Source of the DNA: a virus
Taxonomy: Duplodnaviria > Heunggongvirae > Uroviricota > Caudoviricetes
DNA length: 11,394 nt
Strand: one strand, 5' to 3'
IMG/VR virus record: IMGVR_UViG_2531839129_000022
In this document: one piece after another, positions 3,416 to 8,375 of the stretch
Numbering within the stretch: position 1 is the stretch's first letter
Layout of the letters: every line of letters starts with the position of its first letter
The notes under the pieces: model-generated
Database searches by the model: none
Seen by the model: only the letters and a program-made list of their open reading frames with translations
What the model was told of the DNA's origin: nothing
Translations under genes and position numbers: made by a program

Positions 3416-3832
3416 ATGAAAATTGATTATGACGAGATAGCCAGAATATTTGATGTTTTTCTGGAGGCCGACACCGCATTCATTCGACTGGAAGATGTCG
3501 GCTGGGATTGTTCTCAGCGGCACAGCGACAGCCATCAGAAGCTGGTTTTCCATCTTCTGTTGCTGGTTGAAAATGGTTTTATCAGCAACAGATATCTGGA
3601 AACAGGCACCGCAAAAAGCATTGGTCTCACCCCAACAAGCCTCGGATATTCATATTCAGGCACCAGTGTCAGACTTACACAAGATGGTCATGATTTTGCG
3701 AAAGCACTACATCAAAAACCCATTCTTGAGCGCATAAAACAGGACCTTGCCGACGCCCCGATGACGCTCGTAACAGACGTCGGCAAACAGTGGTTAACCT
3801 CGTTTCTTAAAAAGAAACTCGGGATTGAATAG
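3416..3832 (+). CDS. Hypothetical protein, 138 aa, encoded on the strand opposite to the whole early operon (candidate accessory gene)
   Basis: It is the only substantial ORF in the 408-bp gap between gemA and the upstream early ORF; manual translation of all three - frames there gives nothing longer than about 25 codons. AAGGAA SD 7 nt before the ATG. Candidate extended -10 (TGgATTAAT, 3354..3362) inside the gemA 5' region. The stretch looks more AT-rich than its flanks by eye. No recognisable domain. Confidence 0.45.
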   Translation: MKIDYDEIARIFDVFLEADTAFIRLEDVGWDCSQRHSDSHQKLVFHLLLLVENGFISNRYLETGTAKSIGLTPTSLGYSYSGTSVRLTQDGHDFAKALHQKPILERIKQDLADAPMTLVTDVGKQWLTSFLKKKLGIE

Positions 3833-4120
3833 TTCCCTGTTCATACGTTGCAGCGCATCAAGGGCGGCGACAGCCGCCACTTTATTGTTACCATCAGCAA
3901 TAGTGCGGAGATTTTCAATAATCCAGTGAGGACTCAGTGACTCAGCAATAATGCCAAACCGGTACGCCATGACTTCATCAATAGCTTTTTCATGAGACGA
4001 CTCATATACAAAACTCACAAAGTCATGCACTTCTTTTTTCGGCAAACCACCAGCAATCAGCAGGGCGGCAAGCTCTTCTGATTTTGAAAATACACCATTA
4101 TTCATATCACTCACCTTCAC
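3794..4120 (-). CDS. Early-region hypothetical protein (108 aa)
   Basis: Same strand as the early operon; its start overlaps the stop of the upstream ORF by 14 nt (coupled). No recognisable motif. Confidence 0.5.
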   Translation of the reverse strand: MKVSDMNNGVFSKSEELAALLIAGGLPKKEVHDFVSFVYESSHEKAIDEVMAYRFGIIAESLSPHWIIENLRTIADGNNKVAAVAALDALQRMNRELFNPEFLFKKRG

Positions 4121-4865
4121 AATTCATGCACGCCGTGTCATCGCCCATATCGCAGTGGTTGCATTTCTGCCCGCCACAATGAGGGCACTCTTTCAGATAT
4201 TCAGGGGATTCATTCCCGCAGGTCGGGCATTCCTGTTTCACCGTGGTAAATGTCCCCGGCCACGAATACGATGTTTCACCGACTGTCTTTTTCCCCGTTA
4301 TTTCTGAATCAGAACTAATACAGTGTTTTTCAACCCATGCCACACGTGCTGAATTAAGGTGGCATCTGGCTAATTTGCTTTCGTTTATGTAATGTTCGCT
4401 CTCCCGGTTAAATGGCAATATCGCATTCAGCCCTGCTGAGATAAAGTCCGCATGTAATTGTTCTAATGCGGCTTCACTGTCTGCACCGGTTGATTCAAAA
4501 TAATCGTAAGCATTGGCACATAATCCGGCAGCCCGGATAAATACATCATCGCCCGTCTCCATTGCCCCATTCTTTAACCATTGGTTGTAGGCTGTATAAA
4601 AACTATAAAGTTGCTTTCTGATACAGGTAGTGGCAGTTCCGCCATTAACTGACGCTGGCGTAACATAGCCAGCTCTGCATAAAGCAGAACGAAGTATATC
4701 CAGAACCTGCCAGGCATCTTCTCCTTCAATCACGCTACAGTTTTTGTACACCAGGACGTCCCGGCCACAACTTTTATCAATACCCCAGTCTTCAAATTTC
4801 ACAACCAGCCTCCTGCACCACACCCGGTGCTGATGAAAAATCAATGATGAGATAACGCAGTACAT
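4107..4865 (-). CDS. Early-region protein with C-terminal double zinc-ribbon (four CxxC: CPTC, CPHC, CNHC, CMNC); function unknown
   Basis: 252-aa ORF from ATG 4865. An alternative GTG start at 4802 is preceded by AGGAGG with a 6-nt spacer and would overlap the upstream stop by only 11 nt. The Cys-rich tail is unmistakable in the translation. Confidence 0.55.
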   Translation of the reverse strand: MYCVISSLIFHQHRVWCRRLVVKFEDWGIDKSCGRDVLVYKNCSVIEGEDAWQVLDILRSALCRAGYVTPASVNGGTATTCIRKQLYSFYTAYNQWLKNGAMETGDDVFIRAAGLCANAYDYFESTGADSEAALEQLHADFISAGLNAILPFNRESEHYINESKLARCHLNSARVAWVEKHCISSDSEITGKKTVGETSYSWPGTFTTVKQECPTCGNESPEYLKECPHCGGQKCNHCDMGDDTACMNCEGE

Positions 4866-5429: not shown

Positions 5430-5954
5430 TTAAATACCGGCTTCCTGTTCAAACGGAATAATGGAAAAATCTTCAATGCCTGATTTAACTGTAATTCCGG
5501 CAACACCTGCGACCGCTTTCGGTTCCAGCAAAATCGCTTCCTTGTTGATTTCCTGCTTCGTGCGAATAAAGCGTTGCAGGCCAAGACGCTCCAGCGTTTC
5601 CATCACTGCATCCATACCACGAATACTTACTGATGGTGGACGGACCCGCCACGATACATCACCGGTGACAAGATTCGCCGTCTTCACTTTGCCGCCGTTC
5701 GTCAGTTCGTCGCGGTTCGCTTCACACCATCCCTGAACGCCTTTTGAAAGGGTTTCAATATCGGTTTTAATCGGTGTAATCCGGGCCGCAAATTTCTCCG
5801 TAATTTCCGCGATGGCATCATTCATTTCCGTTTCCAGACGTGATGCTTCGCGCTGTAAATCCCCGATGCGTTTAATATCGGTAATCACCGCATCGCGGTT
5901 TTGTGGCATATAAGCCGCTGCGGCACTCTTGATGCGTTTTGCTGGTTTAGCCAT
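5430..5954 (-). CDS. gam: Gam, host-nuclease (RecBCD) inhibitor, Ku-like DNA-end-binding protein
   Basis: 174 aa MAKPAKRIKSAAAAYMPQNRDAVITDIKRIGDLQREASRLETEMNDAIAEI... matches Mu Gam as I recall it, in the expected position between B and gemA. Confidence 0.9.
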   Translation of the reverse strand: MAKPAKRIKSAAAAYMPQNRDAVITDIKRIGDLQREASRLETEMNDAIAEITEKFAARITPIKTDIETLSKGVQGWCEANRDELTNGGKVKTANLVTGDVSWRVRPPSVSIRGMDAVMETLERLGLQRFIRTKQEINKEAILLEPKAVAGVAGITVKSGIEDFSIIPFEQEAGI

Positions 5955-5973: not shown

Positions 5974-6273
5974 TTAATATCCGCTGTATACAATGCTGGA
6001 TACAGCCCGATTGCTTAATTCCATCTTTCGGGCAATGACATGAATATCCAGTCCTTCTTTATAAAGTTCACGACACAAATATTTGTCGTGTTCACTGATT
6101 CGGTATACACACAATGATATTCCGTGCCTTCTGGCATGTGCCCGGAGGGCGGTTGTGGCGACTTTCAGTTTTTCCGCCATTTCTTCAATGGTCATTTTCC
6201 CGACGTTGGCTTCGATAAATTCCCGGTCTTCGCGTGACCAGCGCTTACGATTACACTTCATGTCAGTCACCAT
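5974..6273 (-). CDS. Early-region small protein (99 aa) with HTH-like segments
   Basis: Start abuts the stop of the upstream ORF. Segments MTIEEMAEKLKVATTALRAHARRHGI and LDIHVIARKMELSNRAVSSIVY look like helix-turn-helix units. Confidence 0.5.
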   Translation of the reverse strand: MVTDMKCNRKRWSREDREFIEANVGKMTIEEMAEKLKVATTALRAHARRHGISLCVYRISEHDKYLCRELYKEGLDIHVIARKMELSNRAVSSIVYSGY

Positions 6274-6693
6274 TCAGTACAGCAGAGGCTCGCGCAGTGA
6301 TGCCGGAATATGCCGCAGCGATAACTGAACCGCTTTCAGGGCAAGCGAGGAATAACAGCAGCGCGCCCAGCCTTTTGCCATTAACCGGTAATCGCGCCAG
6401 ATACGCTGCCACATTTCACGGACTTTCTGGTCTGATGCGCAGATGTATTCCCGGTCCATGACGTACTCCCATAAATCCACGTTGAACGCACCGCCAGATG
6501 CAATGGCACGGGATATGCTTTCGCCGCAATAACGCGCACAGATGCTGTAATGGTCGAAAGTAATCAGGTAAGTTTTTTCACCATAGCCATCAACTTTTCG
6601 GGCGCAAATAAACTCGCGTAATTCACCGCCGTTGTTATTGCGTTTCTGAATTCGGATTAATGCCTGAATTTCATTTCGGATTTTGTTGTTCAT
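6274..6693 (-). CDS. Early-region hypothetical protein (139 aa)
   Basis: Same-strand ORF tightly packed in the early operon; no recognisable motif. Confidence 0.5.
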   Translation of the reverse strand: MNNKIRNEIQALIRIQKRNNNGGELREFICARKVDGYGEKTYLITFDHYSICARYCGESISRAIASGGAFNVDLWEYVMDREYICASDQKVREMWQRIWRDYRLMAKGWARCCYSSLALKAVQLSLRHIPASLREPLLY

Positions 6694-6707
6694 TGCCGGA
6701 ATTCCTT

Positions 6708-6971
6708 TCAGTGGCGTGTTTTTTCAACAGCCATTTCAGTGACACTGCCACCTGTGATGACACCATCGTTTTTCAAAATCTCAATGGCTTCATGAGCTGA
6801 CTCATTAATTATTTTCTGGCTTTTGTTAAGCACCAATAACGCCACCAGACCTGCAAGTGTAGCCTCATCCCCTTCCATTTCCACACTACCACCTACCGCA
6901 ATACTGGTGCGCAAATGCCGTCCTTTAGTTCCAGATACTGTATTTTTAATTTCAATAATTACCTTTGCCAT
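6708..6971 (-). CDS. Early-region hypothetical protein (87 aa)
   Basis: Same-strand ORF in the early operon, 14-bp spacing to its neighbour. Confidence 0.45.
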   Translation of the reverse strand: MAKVIIEIKNTVSGTKGRHLRTSIAVGGSVEMEGDEATLAGLVALLVLNKSQKIINESAHEAIEILKNDGVITGGSVTEMAVEKTRH

Positions 6972-6982
6972 TTTGTTTCTCC

Positions 6983-7186
6983 TTATTGATTAACGGGTGT
7001 TGCCTTTGTGCTTTTTACGTTCTTAAAGACATTTTCGCTGATGATGGGCGACATGCAGACCAGCCTGTGACCATCAATAAATTCAAAAGCAACACCACCC
7101 TCAACAGTCGTTTCCATTACACTGACATTATCAAGGTTGATTAACTTACTGATTCCCAGATTATCGTGAATGTTTATCACCATCAT
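6983..7186 (-). CDS. Early-region hypothetical protein (67 aa)
   Basis: Same-strand small ORF in the early operon. Confidence 0.4.
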   Translation of the reverse strand: MMVINIHDNLGISKLINLDNVSVMETTVEGGVAFEFIDGHRLVCMSPIISENVFKNVKSTKATPVNQ

Positions 7187-7193
7187 TAAAATG

Positions 7194-7421
7194 CTACCTC
7201 CAGATTATCTGACAACCATTAAGACGGGCCGTCCATACAGAACGGGCCACCCCGGACTTATGCTCCATAATCCTGACCGCGTTTTTTACCAGTTCCACCG
7301 GTGGGTAAGTGATTTCAAGAATCGGACGCGCCACGCCGAGATATGATTCATTTACATGACTCCCGCGCGCCTGTAACCAGTTCTGCGCATCCGTTGCCAT
7401 TTTTATATTTCGGGCCATCAT
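7194..7421 (-). CDS. Small early protein immediately downstream of B (75 aa); position and size fit the Mu Kil host-killing/cell-division inhibitor, but I cannot confirm the identity from sequence
   Basis: The ORF starts 15 nt after the B stop on the same strand. The kil assignment is from recalled Mu genetics (kil maps just after B, product about 8 kDa), not from sequence recognition. Confidence 0.5.
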
Positions 7422-7436
7422 AATTTCTTCTCCTTC

Positions 7437-8375
7437 TTAATTACGCAGCAGCGTTGAAATATCAACGTCCAGGTCTAATTCACGGAAAGCCTGACGCAGA
7501 TAATCTTCGTTAACACGCTCACCTTTACCGTGAGCCGTCATGGCGGCAAGGCGAAGTGAATGATTCAGAATGCGAAGCGCACCTGGTTTCTGCGCAATCT
7601 GCTGTAATAACTCCAGTTCATTTTCGCCGTTAATCTGCCAGGCATCCGCAATAGCTTTTACATCGGCTTTTTTTGTTTTATTAATTGCAGTACGCTTTGC
7701 AATACGGGAAAACAGACGGGCAAATTCAACCGTTCTGTTACCCCCCGTCATATTTGAATAAACCCGGTGATTTCCCATCAGTACAAGGCCAATACGGGTT
7801 GATTCCTGTAACAGGCGGAGTTCTTCCAGAACTTCGGCACCAAGATGATCAGCTTCGTCGATGATAACCAGCCCCTGTGTACCTTCAAGGCGACGTCGCA
7901 GGGCACGGGAGAGTGGCCCTTTACGGCGTGGTGCGTCATTCATTCCCAGCTCAAACGCCAGTTCAGTAAGACATTCCAAAACGCTAGCACAGGATGGCGT
8001 AATGGTGATCATCCAGACATTGTTATTGGTGCGGCGATATTCACGGGCCGCTTCGGTTTTGCCCACACCAGGATTGCCACATACAACAGCAATACTTTCA
8101 GTCAGGCTGGCAAAACGCATACTTGTCCAGATTTGTTTTACCGTCTGCGTTTCCACAAAGCGGGGCGGTTCAGGTAGTTCTGCAACTGCATGATATTTTT
8201 CCAGCCAGCGTTGCAGCATTTGTGAAACACGCTCGTTATCCCCGTTGTACTTATCATTGATAAAACTACTGATAGTTCCGGTAGAAAGTCCGCTCTCAAG
8301 AGCAATTTGTTTAAAGGTGGTTTCTTCATTTTCTACAAGCGTGCGCAGTCCTGCGCGAATATCGGAAATATTCAT
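7437..8375 (-). CDS. B: MuB transposition target-DNA activator (AAA+ ATPase)
   Basis: 312 aa. Walker A GNPGVGKT and Walker B LVIIDEADHL are present, with an N-terminal HTH-like region. Matches Mu B as recalled. Confidence 0.93.
   Translation of the reverse strand: MNISDIRAGLRTLVENEETTFKQIALESGLSTGTISSFINDKYNGDNERVSQMLQRWLEKYHAVAELPEPPRFVETQTVKQIWTSMRFASLTESIAVVCGNPGVGKTEAAREYRRTNNNVWMITITPSCASVLECLTELAFELGMNDAPRRKGPLSRALRRRLEGTQGLVIIDEADHLGAEVLEELRLLQESTRIGLVLMGNHRVYSNMTGGNRTVEFARLFSRIAKRTAINKTKKADVKAIADAWQINGENELELLQQIAQKPGALRILNHSLRLAAMTAHGKGERVNEDYLRQAFRELDLDVDISTLLRN

Follow-up and report, generated by a model that had tools for sequence, protein, structure and literature searches.

Mu carries, between the transposition gene B and gam, a semi-essential (SE) early region (AF083977 / NC_000929, 4315-5781) in which the genes Kil, E5, E6, E7 and E8 are annotated in that order, followed by gam. 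Deletion of the SE region abolishes the non-replicative killing of the host by Mu (PMC3325207). Two of its products have described phenotypes. Expression of Mu Kil kills E. coli and converts the rods to spheres, as stated in a passage of PMC3961180 that cites Waggoner et al. 1989, and the spherical shape points to a block of cell elongation rather than of division. The Kil proteins of lambda and Rac, which are FtsZ-directed division inhibitors, have the name, the small size, the early expression and the host toxicity in common with Mu Kil, but they have no sequence similarity to it and, according to the same passage of PMC3961180, they produce filaments where Mu Kil produces spheres. The second product is Gnarl2 (Mu Mup07/E6; Silas et al., Nat Commun 2025), which came out of a screen of accessory genes for counter-defence. 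Gnarl2 shifts the O-antigen bands down and sensitises wild E. coli to T5 by 10^5-10^6-fold, and its authors argue against any help of the protein to its own carrier phage in entering the cell (PMC12373910).

Here we analyse a run of five tightly packed small ORFs in a stretch of 11,394 nucleotides of viral DNA (IMG/VR record IMGVR_UViG_2531839129_000022; the window). An earlier note, made from the sequence, had read the run as a possible cluster of new host-shutoff and anti-defence effectors.

Results

The window corresponds to the left end of a Mu-like genome. At the nucleotide level it is ~97.5% identical to Mu across the alignable 87%, and it is 100% identical to contig APYN01000075.1 of E. 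coli P0299917.4. The ORF listing of the window contains five minus-strand ORFs of 75, 67, 87, 139 and 99 aa, separated by 7, 11, 14 and 0 nt, in exact agreement with the ORFs, the coordinates and the gaps of 0 to 14 nt given in the earlier note. The block starts 15 nt after the stop codon of B (7437-7439) and ends 19 nt before the start of gam (5954). Both flanking genes are on the same strand: the transposition protein B (MuB; 7437..8375, minus strand) is 100% identical to Mu B and matches Pfam Phage-MuB_C, and the host-nuclease inhibitor gam (5430..5954, minus strand) is 99% identical to Mu Gam and matches PF07352. By BLASTP, the identities of the five ORFs to their Mu counterparts are 100, none, 87, 95 and 99%, in order. 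In order, strand, spacing and flanking genes (B upstream, gam downstream) the block agrees with the Mu SE region, so the setting suggested previously holds: the block sits in the Mu early region known for host-killing functions. It corresponds to the catalogued Mu E-series set (kil, the E5 slot, E6, E7, E8) and not to a new effector cluster. The block is thus mostly ordinary, consisting of the already catalogued kil-to-gp9 genes of a Mu-like E. coli prophage. The exception is the gp6 position, where the window has an unrelated 67-aa gene; the earlier note had given no word that this ORF departs from Mu gp6.

The first four ORFs are preceded at 7-10 nt by the Shine-Dalgarno motifs AGGAG, GGAGG, AAGGAG and AAGGA, and would be translated from their own ribosome-binding sites. 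The fifth, gp9, starts at TGA-ATG, abutting the gp8 stop, and a GGTGA motif is found only before its internal ATG. By homology with Mu, the block would be transcribed as part of the long early (Pe) message, downstream of ner, A and B. Within the block, neither internal promoters or terminators nor antisense genes were detected above shuffle expectation, and an Rfam scan gave no match.

The first gene, kil (Mu gp5; 7194..7421, minus strand), encodes 75 aa from the first ATG, or 74 aa from the second ATG at 7418, as in the Mu annotation, and its ribosome-binding site AGGAG is at 7430-7434. Its product is identical to Mup05 at 74/74 residues, which confirms the previous assignment of this ORF to Mu Kil. 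The protein matches phrog_2743 over residues 1-75 of 75 (E=2.8e-43). It had no match in the Pfam scan library; a precomputed match to PF26843 (Kil_protein) exists for the identical gene of a related locus (L007). kil is the first gene downstream of B on the early strand in 44/44 surveyed loci that cover the region, with pN/pS of 0.03-0.14. From the literature on Mu Kil, the protein would kill the host and round the cells through blocked elongation. The description of this ORF as a cell-division inhibitor in the earlier note does not fit the spherical cells reported in that passage of PMC3961180. The label 'Kil protein for bacterial septation inhibition' in databases looks like a transfer of the name, and should be used with caution for Mu Kil since it conflicts with the reported phenotype.

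The third gene, gp7 (E6; 6708..6971, minus strand), encodes an 87-aa orthologue of Gnarl2. It is 87% identical to Mup07 (NP_050611.1) over 87/87 residues and belongs to phrog_10252 (E=5.8e-54), and we confirmed by accession that NP_050611.1 is orf63/gnarl2 of Silas et al. This ORF had been counted among those with no recognisable motifs, a description that its identity as Mu gp7/E6, i.e. Gnarl2, replaces. The protein assayed in that study is the Mu one, and the window gp7, at the same locus, differs from it at 11/87 residues; by analogy with the Mu protein, gp7 may change the O-antigen/LPS of wild E. coli. Its pN/pS is 0.19-0.48.

The fourth gene, gp8 (E7; 6274..6693, minus strand; 139 aa), is 95% identical to Mup08, matches phrog_3690 over residues 1-139 of 139 (E=4e-93), and is present before gp9 in 45/45 loci with pN/pS of 0.19-0.25. 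The residues H48, C52 and C56 within FDHYSICARYCGE do not vary. In an exhaustive HMMER search, gp8 recovered only Mu-like relatives. Three further, long matches (P0032-P0034) are PPC, Ig and C2H2 repeat proteins, which we rejected as chance matches inflated by the repeats, and P0028, listed as a '43% identical' relative, is in fact gp8 with a frameshift: its middle part corresponds to alternative reading frames of the window. No significant match was found among PDB sequences, and the AlphaFold2 model, built on a 13-sequence alignment, has a pLDDT of 41.4 and is unusable. The 3' half of gp8 has almost no differences among Mu, D108, SfMu and the window. We considered a conserved DNA or RNA element there and rejected it: the wider set varies with the normal third-position bias, and Rfam gives no match. 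A search of the genome-contig collection with Kil and with the gp8 alignment gave no confirmed match, and a literature search on the RefSeq accessions of gp5-gp9 found no paper. We regard gp8 as a conserved orphan that has an invariant His/Cys/Cys motif and to which no activity can be assigned.

The fifth gene, gp9 (E8; 5974..6273, minus strand), is 99% identical to Mup09. The maximal ORF is 99 aa, and translation most likely starts at the internal ATG at 6261 to give 95 aa, because the homologues in databases are mostly 95 aa long, the upstream codon is GTG in SfMu, and the revised Mu record (AF083977) places the start at this internal codon. Several results are consistent with the helix-turn-helix (HTH)-like segments that had been noticed in the 99-aa protein. 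It matches phrog_323, 'transcriptional regulator' (D5-like), at E=6.1e-29. It also has ~15 weak HTH-type Pfam matches, all below their cut-offs (the best, in bits against the cut-off, are RWP-RK 21.4/29.3, HTH_Tnp_1 19.3/24.1 and Sigma70_r4_2 16.5/25.7), and none of the curated HTH models in Pfam and NCBIfam reached its own threshold. Relatives of gp9 carry precomputed matches to HTH_11, Sigma70_r4_2, HTH_23 and Sigma70_r4. In the family alignment, two HTH-like halves can be seen, the first of which is duplicated in one relative. The family profile matches weakly a tandem-HTH chain in the PDB (2lvs_A, E=0.009); a sequence search of the PDB with gp9 gave nothing significant. A Klebsiella phage and a Vibrio phage have homologues (48% and 34%, respectively). 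The single-sequence AlphaFold2 model consists of helices with a mean pLDDT of 44.8 and is unreliable; the AlphaFold2 models being unusable, the HTH call rests on the sub-threshold profile matches. We suggest that gp9 is a small tandem helix-turn-helix protein, presumably DNA-binding.

The second ORF (6983..7186, minus strand; 67 aa) occupies the Mu gp6 position between kil and gp7 with the same junctions on both sides, yet it has no BLASTP match to Mup06. Mu gp6 itself is a 76-aa, Cys-rich, zinc-ribbon-like protein, and the invariant CPxC ... CCPWC cysteine pairs of the zinc-ribbon gp6 (phrog_3786) are absent from the 67-aa protein, which has a single Cys and no CxxC pairs. It is instead of a non-Mu type starting with MMVINIHDNLG (hereafter the MMV type; phrog_3375). 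In the profile comparison the MMV type and the zinc-ribbon type align with an hhalign probability of 0.2%, and by this measure the two are unrelated. Neither a tblastn search of the INPHARED phages nor a search of PDB sequences with the 67-aa protein gave a match, the latter in the sense of nothing significant. Its nearest family is a 70-aa MMV type (WP_201482032.1, E. coli A21; WP_089634572.1, MIN10), which has the same position after kil, a nearly identical stretch of 43 N-terminal residues and the same last six residues, ATPVNQ. In Mu-like prophages the MMV-type gene always lies directly after kil. The 67-aa form is 3 aa shorter than the 70-aa family and lacks its VHVGNHHHAE segment: the invariant V44-H45-V46-G47-N48-H49 .. 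H51-A52-E53 is kept in all seven other distinct MMV members, and the window has LVCMSPIISE there. The match to phrog_3375 is weaker for the 67-aa protein (E=4e-21) than for a 70-aa member (1.3e-33).

The slot is bounded on the left by the kil stop codon and on the right by AATCAATAAGGAGAA (6977..6991, minus strand), which takes in the two final codons (N-Q) with the stop codon, followed by the gp7 ribosome-binding site. This junction is largely conserved across both slot-6 types, with one variable position among the window, A21, MIN10, Mu and D108. Between these junctions, a patchwork tract at 7003..7057 (minus strand) differs from the 70-aa family by indels of -1, -5, -1 and -2 nt plus substitutions. 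In a six-sequence alignment inspected by eye, most differences from the 70-aa consensus, including the indel pattern, fit the zinc-ribbon allele of one surveyed locus (L014). The resulting tail, VFKNVKSTKA, resembles FFKQVKGAKV of Mu gp6, and the resemblance to Mu gp6, which comes through this tract, is limited to the last ~17 residues. On this alignment, the 67-aa gene is a hybrid whose first two-thirds are of the MMV type and whose 3' third is patched from the zinc-ribbon type.

To map the variation across Mu-like loci, we surveyed 45 IMG/VR loci together with reference phages, with slot-6 and kil counts taken on 44 loci. kil, gp8, gp9 and gam are always present in the 44-45 related loci. 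Slot 6 holds the zinc-ribbon type in 26, the MMV type in five and nothing in 13 of the 44 loci, and slot 7 holds the Gnarl2 type in 19 and the D108 type in 26 of the 45. All six combinations of slot 6 and slot 7 occur. Among the reference phages, D108 and SfMu have the kil, gp8, gp9, gam frame in common with the window but no MMV-type gene; D108 pairs a zinc-ribbon gp6 with the alternative gp7, and SfMu carries a zinc-ribbon sub-allele that is 78% identical. The D108-type gp7 is only ~23% identical to the Gnarl2 type in the same position. The two slot-7 types nevertheless align with an hhalign probability of 79% (E=1.6e-5) and cross-match through phrog_2230, although part of this similarity comes from the shared N-terminus MAKVI.E. 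They are probably homologous, as very divergent versions of one family, with moderate support from these profiles.

The four testable ORFs (kil, gp7, gp8 and gp9) are intact and of the same length in nearly all of the 45 related loci. The pooled pN/pS is 0.03-0.25 among close relatives and 0.14-0.51 in the broader set, for the genes tested there (gp9 was left out). These ratios indicate purifying selection on kil, gp7, gp8 and gp9. Change is faster in the two slots, with pN/pS of 0.33-0.51 against 0.14-0.25 for kil and gp8. In the block, two rapidly changing positions are set in a constant framework made up of kil, gp8, gp9 and gam. Slot 6 is a true cassette site, occupied by one of two unrelated small genes or by nothing, and slot 7 has very divergent versions of what is probably one family.

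Discussion

The identity, order and conservation of the genes, the slot polymorphism and the hybrid structure are direct observations of this study. We assign a probability of about 0.88 to the reading of the five ORFs as the promoter-proximal part of the semi-essential early region in a Mu-like transposable prophage, including the slot polymorphism and a hybrid gene in the gp6 slot. The outcomes that the earlier note had named as counting against its effector reading were that all ORFs match characterised Mu proteins, or that the coding signal is lost through frameshifts in relatives. The former is largely what we find, as four of the five ORFs match Mu and two of these have known phenotypes, although the 67-aa ORF is not Mu gp6.

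One could still ask whether some of the five ORFs are chance reading frames in transcribed spacer, given that no protein reached a curated Pfam threshold in the scan library and that two have no known function. The lengths kept across ~45 loci and the pN/pS values well below 1 place the ORFs beyond chance, and the ribosome-binding sites, a PHROG family for each ORF and the annotation of the Mu homologues since the 1990s point the same way. We consider this explanation already refuted for kil, gp7, gp8 and gp9 and negligible overall, while for the 67-aa hybrid form alone a non-functional protein is possible. Another possibility is that Kil and the adjacent slot-6 protein work as a functional pair, e.g. 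as toxin and modulator, and that this accounts for the close linkage of their genes: a gap of 7 nt separates them, and the ribosome-binding site of the slot-6 gene shares bases with the kil stop codon. We reject such a pair as highly improbable because the slot is empty in 13 of the 44 loci, which have an intact kil followed by just a conserved 32-nt spacer. Moreover, two unrelated proteins occupy the slot beside a near-identical Kil, and truncated slot-6 genes stand alongside an intact kil in two loci (L006, L029). The idea of a dedicated anti-defence or host-shutoff island, in which most or all of the five proteins inhibit bacterial immune systems, can draw on the early operon, the small proteins, the two hypervariable positions, the discovery of Gnarl2 in a counter-defence screen (PMC12373910) and the toxicity of the SE region to the host (PMC3325207). 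However, Kil, gp8 and gp9 are not variable but conserved and under constraint, gp9 has the look of a DNA-binding regulator, and Gnarl2 acts on the O-antigen barrier and not on an intracellular immune system (PMC12373910). PADLOC gave no match for four of the proteins and only two marginal ones for gp9 (E=0.0036 and 0.014), and no anti-defence family name occurs among the Pfam, PHROGs and NCBIfam matches of the five. We therefore find an island of this kind unlikely.

The hybrid could have come from recombination between two co-resident Mu-like prophages, or from mis-assembly of a draft genome holding both. In the latter case, a short-read consensus would have mixed the MMV and zinc-ribbon alleles of two prophages over ~55 nt, and the real gene would be a normal one of 70 aa. 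This is a serious contender, to which we give somewhat less than even odds. MMV-like and zinc-ribbon-like bases alternate several times within ~55 nt, which is unusual for a single crossover. The exact 67-aa sequence is found only in the draft assembly of E. coli P0299917.4 (GCA_000357305), and the best match among 5,426 complete E. coli genomes is 93.9%. The contig stops inside the prophage, 2 nt past the window, and in the sister assembly P0299917.7 this place is taken by another, different chimera. The stretch of the window from B to gp8 alternates between resemblance to the L010 and to the L014 locus, which carry the two allele types on separate Mu-like contigs of one IMG genome. On the other hand, the indels sum to -9 nt and leave the frame open, which random consensus mixing need not do; patchy conversion tracts from heteroduplex mismatch repair are a real phenomenon; and Mu-like prophages are visibly mosaic throughout the survey. 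The 67-aa protein should be treated as a possible recombinant or assembly chimera and not as a representative of its family.

Beyond the assignment to the Mu SE region, we tentatively propose a two-slot accessory hot spot at gp6 and gp7, where recombination at fixed junctions shuffles alternative small proteins. The D108-type gp7 proteins could then be relatives of Gnarl2 with other O-antigen or host-target specificity, the 70-aa MMV protein could be a new host-surface or counter-defence effector, and hybrids such as the 67-aa form could be living intermediates. Taken as a whole, this proposal is speculative, and we would sooner bet against it than for it.

In summary, the gene cluster itself is of little consequence, being the textbook Mu early region with two genes of published phenotype. 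What is new here is the comparative part, the map of slot variation, and it could be of use in setting a constrained core (kil, gp8, gp9) apart from two positions that can be swapped. The map also supplies natural alleles, namely the D108-type gp7, the zinc-ribbon gp6 and the 70-aa MMV protein, for testing beside Gnarl2 in O-antigen and phage-sensitivity assays.

Identity and coding status of the five-ORF run

The window aligns with phage Mu at 97.5% identity over 87% of its length (megablast against phage genomes) and represents, in reversed orientation, a Mu-like genome's left end. Its genes run c, ner, A, B, then the five ORFs and gam, and continue through gemA, mor, and C to lys. All five ORFs lie on the minus strand: kil (7194-7421, 75 aa), the ORF in the gp6 position (slot 6; 6983-7186, 67 aa), gp7 (6708-6971, 87 aa), gp8 (6274-6693, 139 aa), and gp9 (5974-6273, 99 aa). 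The run begins 15 nt past the stop codon of the 312-aa upstream gene, its internal gaps are 7, 11, 14, and 0 nt, and the next gene follows after 19 nt; the ORF listing thus bears out the coordinates, the strand, and the 0-14 nt gaps of the five packed ORFs described in the earlier note. Shine-Dalgarno motifs can be read off the sequence 7-10 nt upstream of the first four ORFs, and gp9 directly abuts the end of gp8 (TGA immediately followed by ATG). Inside the run, we found no promoter- or terminator-like sites beyond the shuffle expectation, and an Rfam search of the window gave no match.

Mu records label the same interval Kil (Mup05), gp6/E5, gp7/E6, gp8/E7, and gp9/E8. The proposal that the first ORF is Mu Kil was correct (74/74 residues identical to Mup05), and gp7, gp8, and gp9 are 87%, 95%, and 99% identical to their Mu counterparts, respectively; the 67-aa ORF showed no pairwise similarity to Mu gp6. 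In PHROGs, the ORFs fall in phrog_2743 (Kil), phrog_3375 (67-aa ORF, function not known in PHROGs, E=4e-21), phrog_10252 (gp7), phrog_3690 (gp8), and phrog_323 (gp9, ‘transcriptional regulator, D5-like’, E=6e-29). Nothing reached the curated thresholds when the five ORFs were searched against Pfam and NCBIfam, and PADLOC gave no meaningful match. Pooled pN/pS in a close set was 0.03 for kil, 0.19 for both gp7 and gp8, and 0.25 for gp9; the set comprised two E. coli prophages along with Mu, D108, SfMu, and a Yersinia Mu-like phage. Across a wider set, 45 IMG/VR loci retrieved with the gp8 profile, pN/pS was higher for the slot genes (0.33-0.51) than for kil (0.14) or gp8 (0.25). In this set, kil, gp8, gp9, and gam were never missing from a locus that covered them, and ORF lengths were nearly always kept, the exceptions being a frameshifted gp9 (L052) and truncated slot-6 genes (L006 and L029). 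Judged by these coding signals, these are real genes, and the run is the known kil-gp9 block of Mu.

Mu Kil was reported to act on cell elongation

This block belongs to the semi-essential region, whose ORFs have been described as largely uncharacterised (PMC3820752) and whose deletion abolishes killing after infection by non-replicating Mu (PMC3325207). The earlier note called Kil a cell-division inhibitor, which is not the reported phenotype: in the passage of PMC3961180 citing Waggoner et al. 1989, Mu kil expression turns E. coli cells spherical, read there as inhibition of cell elongation, and the same passage explicitly contrasts this with the Kil proteins of lambda and Rac, which are unrelated and cause filamentation. 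Homologues of 7194-7421 are labelled ‘Kil protein for bacterial septation inhibition’ in PHROG/RefSeq, which is likewise at odds with the spherical-cell phenotype; the label seems to be a transfer from kil of lambda and Rac, to which Mu kil is unrelated.

Slots 6 and 7 are polymorphic

When the window was aligned with Mu, D108, and the E. coli prophages A21 and MIN10, DNA similarity ended at the kil stop codon and restarted at AATCAATAAGGAGAA, a stretch made up of the final two codons, the stop codon, and the gp7 ribosome-binding site. Between these points, Mu and D108 encode a 73-76-aa protein with an invariant CPxC...CCPWC and weak zinc-ribbon matches, and the window, A21, and MIN10 encode a protein containing ‘MMVINIHDNLG’ (MMV type). 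The probability in hhalign is 0.2%, and by this comparison the two types are unrelated. The MMV gene was found solely right behind kil in E. coli Mu-like prophages; of the 5,426 complete genomes of E. coli, seven carry it. Among the 44 IMG/VR loci covering slot 6, 26 carry the zinc-ribbon type, five the MMV type, and 13 no gene; being absent in one third of the relatives, the slot-6 gene is dispensable. Where the gene is missing, kil and gp7 are separated by a conserved spacer of 32 nt that includes a ribosome-binding site of its own (TAACGGCTTATTTATTTGTGAGGAATAACAAA, common to L036, L039, L041-L044, L046, L047, and L052), and the same loci share an alternative synonymous kil ending, ctggcgttaa. 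The conserved spacer and the distinct kil ending indicate that the empty slot is a stable lineage state, not a set of scattered recent deletions.

Slot 7 also has two types in the wider set, an 87-aa type (19 loci) named after Gnarl2 and an 89-aa type like D108 gp7 (26 loci, 40-100% identical within the type). They are only ~23% identical, but share the N-terminus MAKVI.E. and a terminal His, align profile to profile with a probability of 79% (E=1.6e-5), and the Gnarl2 type cross-matches the D108-type PHROG (E=0.005); they probably form a single, rapidly evolving family. Each of the six possible pairings of a slot-6 state with a slot-7 type was observed, implying that the two slots reassort.

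The gp6-slot gene of the window is a hybrid

The exact 67-aa sequence occurs in one assembly only, and all remaining distinct MMV-type proteins are 70 aa long, with the segment VHVGNHHHAE retained. The nucleotide differences between the window and the 70-aa alleles are confined to ~7057-7003 and consist of indels of -1, -5, -1, and -2 nt and several substitutions. Read by eye, the alignment matches most of them, the indel pattern among them, to the zinc-ribbon allele of L014, and the resulting tail, VFKNVKSTKA, resembles FFKQVKGAKV of Mu gp6. From B to gp8, the window switches between stretches like L010 (MMV type) and stretches like L014, two loci of one IMG genome. The sister assembly P0299917.7 contains a cleaner, different chimera (L006 3001-3226), with a 5’ part of the MMV type and a 3’ part of the L014 zinc-ribbon type joined out of frame; the product has 56 aa, and a gap of 55 nt comes after it.

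From these alignments, the gp6-slot gene of the window is a hybrid, probably recombinant and possibly artefactual. The data fit recombination (or gene conversion) between two Mu-like prophages residing in one host, and they also fit a draft assembly from short reads whose consensus is mixed. The fine-grained alternation makes a mixed consensus more plausible, as does the way the contig ends: the window is 100% identical to 5793-17186 of the E. coli P0299917.4 locus (contig APYN01000075.1), which stops 2 nt past window position 1 (L007 17186 of 17188), just after the lysis genes, implying an assembly break within the prophage. The sister contig ends at an apparently similar distance from the left end, and the contig ends of both genomes suggest a repeat, i.e., a second Mu-like prophage.

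gp8 and gp9

An exhaustive HMMER search with gp8 over 1.8 billion representatives retrieved Mu-like relatives only, leaving gp8 an orphan; three further matches were chance matches to repeat proteins and another was a frameshifted copy. Residues H48, C52, and C56 of gp8 are invariant inside FDHYSICARYCGE. The helix-turn-helix-like segments noted earlier in the 99-aa ORF are corroborated by phrog_323 and by ~15 helix-turn-helix-type matches in Pfam/NCBIfam, all below threshold. The gp9 family alignment displays two such halves, RW..E..F.....GKM...EMA.KL......L...A.R.GISL and LCRELYKEGL.I.VIA.KMELSNRAVS.IVY; the first half is repeated in one relative, several relatives bear precomputed HTH_11, Sigma70_r4_2, and HTH_23 matches, and the family profile weakly matches the solved tandem-HTH protein 2lvs_A (E=0.009). 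Homologues extend to one phage each of Klebsiella (48%) and Vibrio (34%). The 99-aa homologue in Mu_3F6 (LR595867.1 5591-5887) is annotated ‘COG1209: dTDP-glucose pyrophosphorylase’, an annotation incompatible with a small tandem helix-turn-helix protein. Most gp9 relatives are 95 aa long and begin at an internal Met; the upstream position reads GTG in SfMu, and in the revised Mu record, too, the gene begins at the internal ATG, so that gp9 of the window likely starts at 6261. The AlphaFold2 models were unusable (pLDDT 44.8 for gp9 and 41.4 for gp8), and our literature search found no function assignment for gp6, gp8, or gp9.

Over ~200 nt spanning the 3’ half of gp8 and the start of gp9 (6206-6406), the window, Mu, L004, L006, and L014 have no nucleotide differences and L010 differs at 3-4 nt, with the flanking segments differing by 5-15%; in separate alignments, D108 and SfMu show the same invariance. 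A functional DNA element was rejected because the segment varies normally in the wider set; the identity seems to reflect recent sharing of a recombinant segment.

Other variable segments of the early region

In L016, L021, L036, L037, L039-L041, L044-L046, and L053, MuB (7437-8375 in the window) is ~40-100% identical to Mu B and kil, gp8, gp9, and gam are still 80-100% identical, marking a strong mosaic boundary between B and kil. On the opposite strand of the early operon, between gp13/14-like genes and gemA, lies a 138-aa ORF (3416-3832, plus strand) matching phrog_585 (no function named, E=5.5e-31). MIN10 has an ORF of equal length at this position, annotated as a DUF2513 protein, and A21 a different 88-aa antisense ORF; the 138-aa ORF looks like a moron in a further variable slot. 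Another non-Mu segment is 4107-4865 (minus strand), a 231-252-aa ORF (phrog_6418) with CxxC pairs clustered C-terminally and a weak DnaJ_CXXCXGXG match (E=0.006), at the position of the 176-aa Mu gp12.

Proposed working of the block

By homology with Mu, the block would be transcribed from the early promoter within the ner-A-B-...-C transcript and translated from separate ribosome-binding sites, with gp9 abutting gp8. From the literature, Kil would round and kill the host. Mu E6/Mup07 (NP_050611.1) corresponds to gnarl2, listed as orf63 in an accessory-gene screen from 2025, in which its expression shifted O-antigen bands and raised T5 infection 10^5-10^6-fold in the wild strains ECOR1 and ECOR22 (PMC12373910); gp7, 87% identical, may likewise alter O-antigen. 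Profile matches suggest that gp9 is presumably a small DNA-binding protein, and family and profile searches assigned no activity to gp8 or the slot-6 proteins. The interpretation in the earlier note was right in part. The proposed early cluster of host-directed effectors fits Kil and Gnarl2, but it is not new here, and the conserved gp8 and gp9 are unlike arms-race genes. What this analysis adds to the known block is only the gp6/gp7 cassette polymorphism and the hybrid gp6-slot gene of the window.
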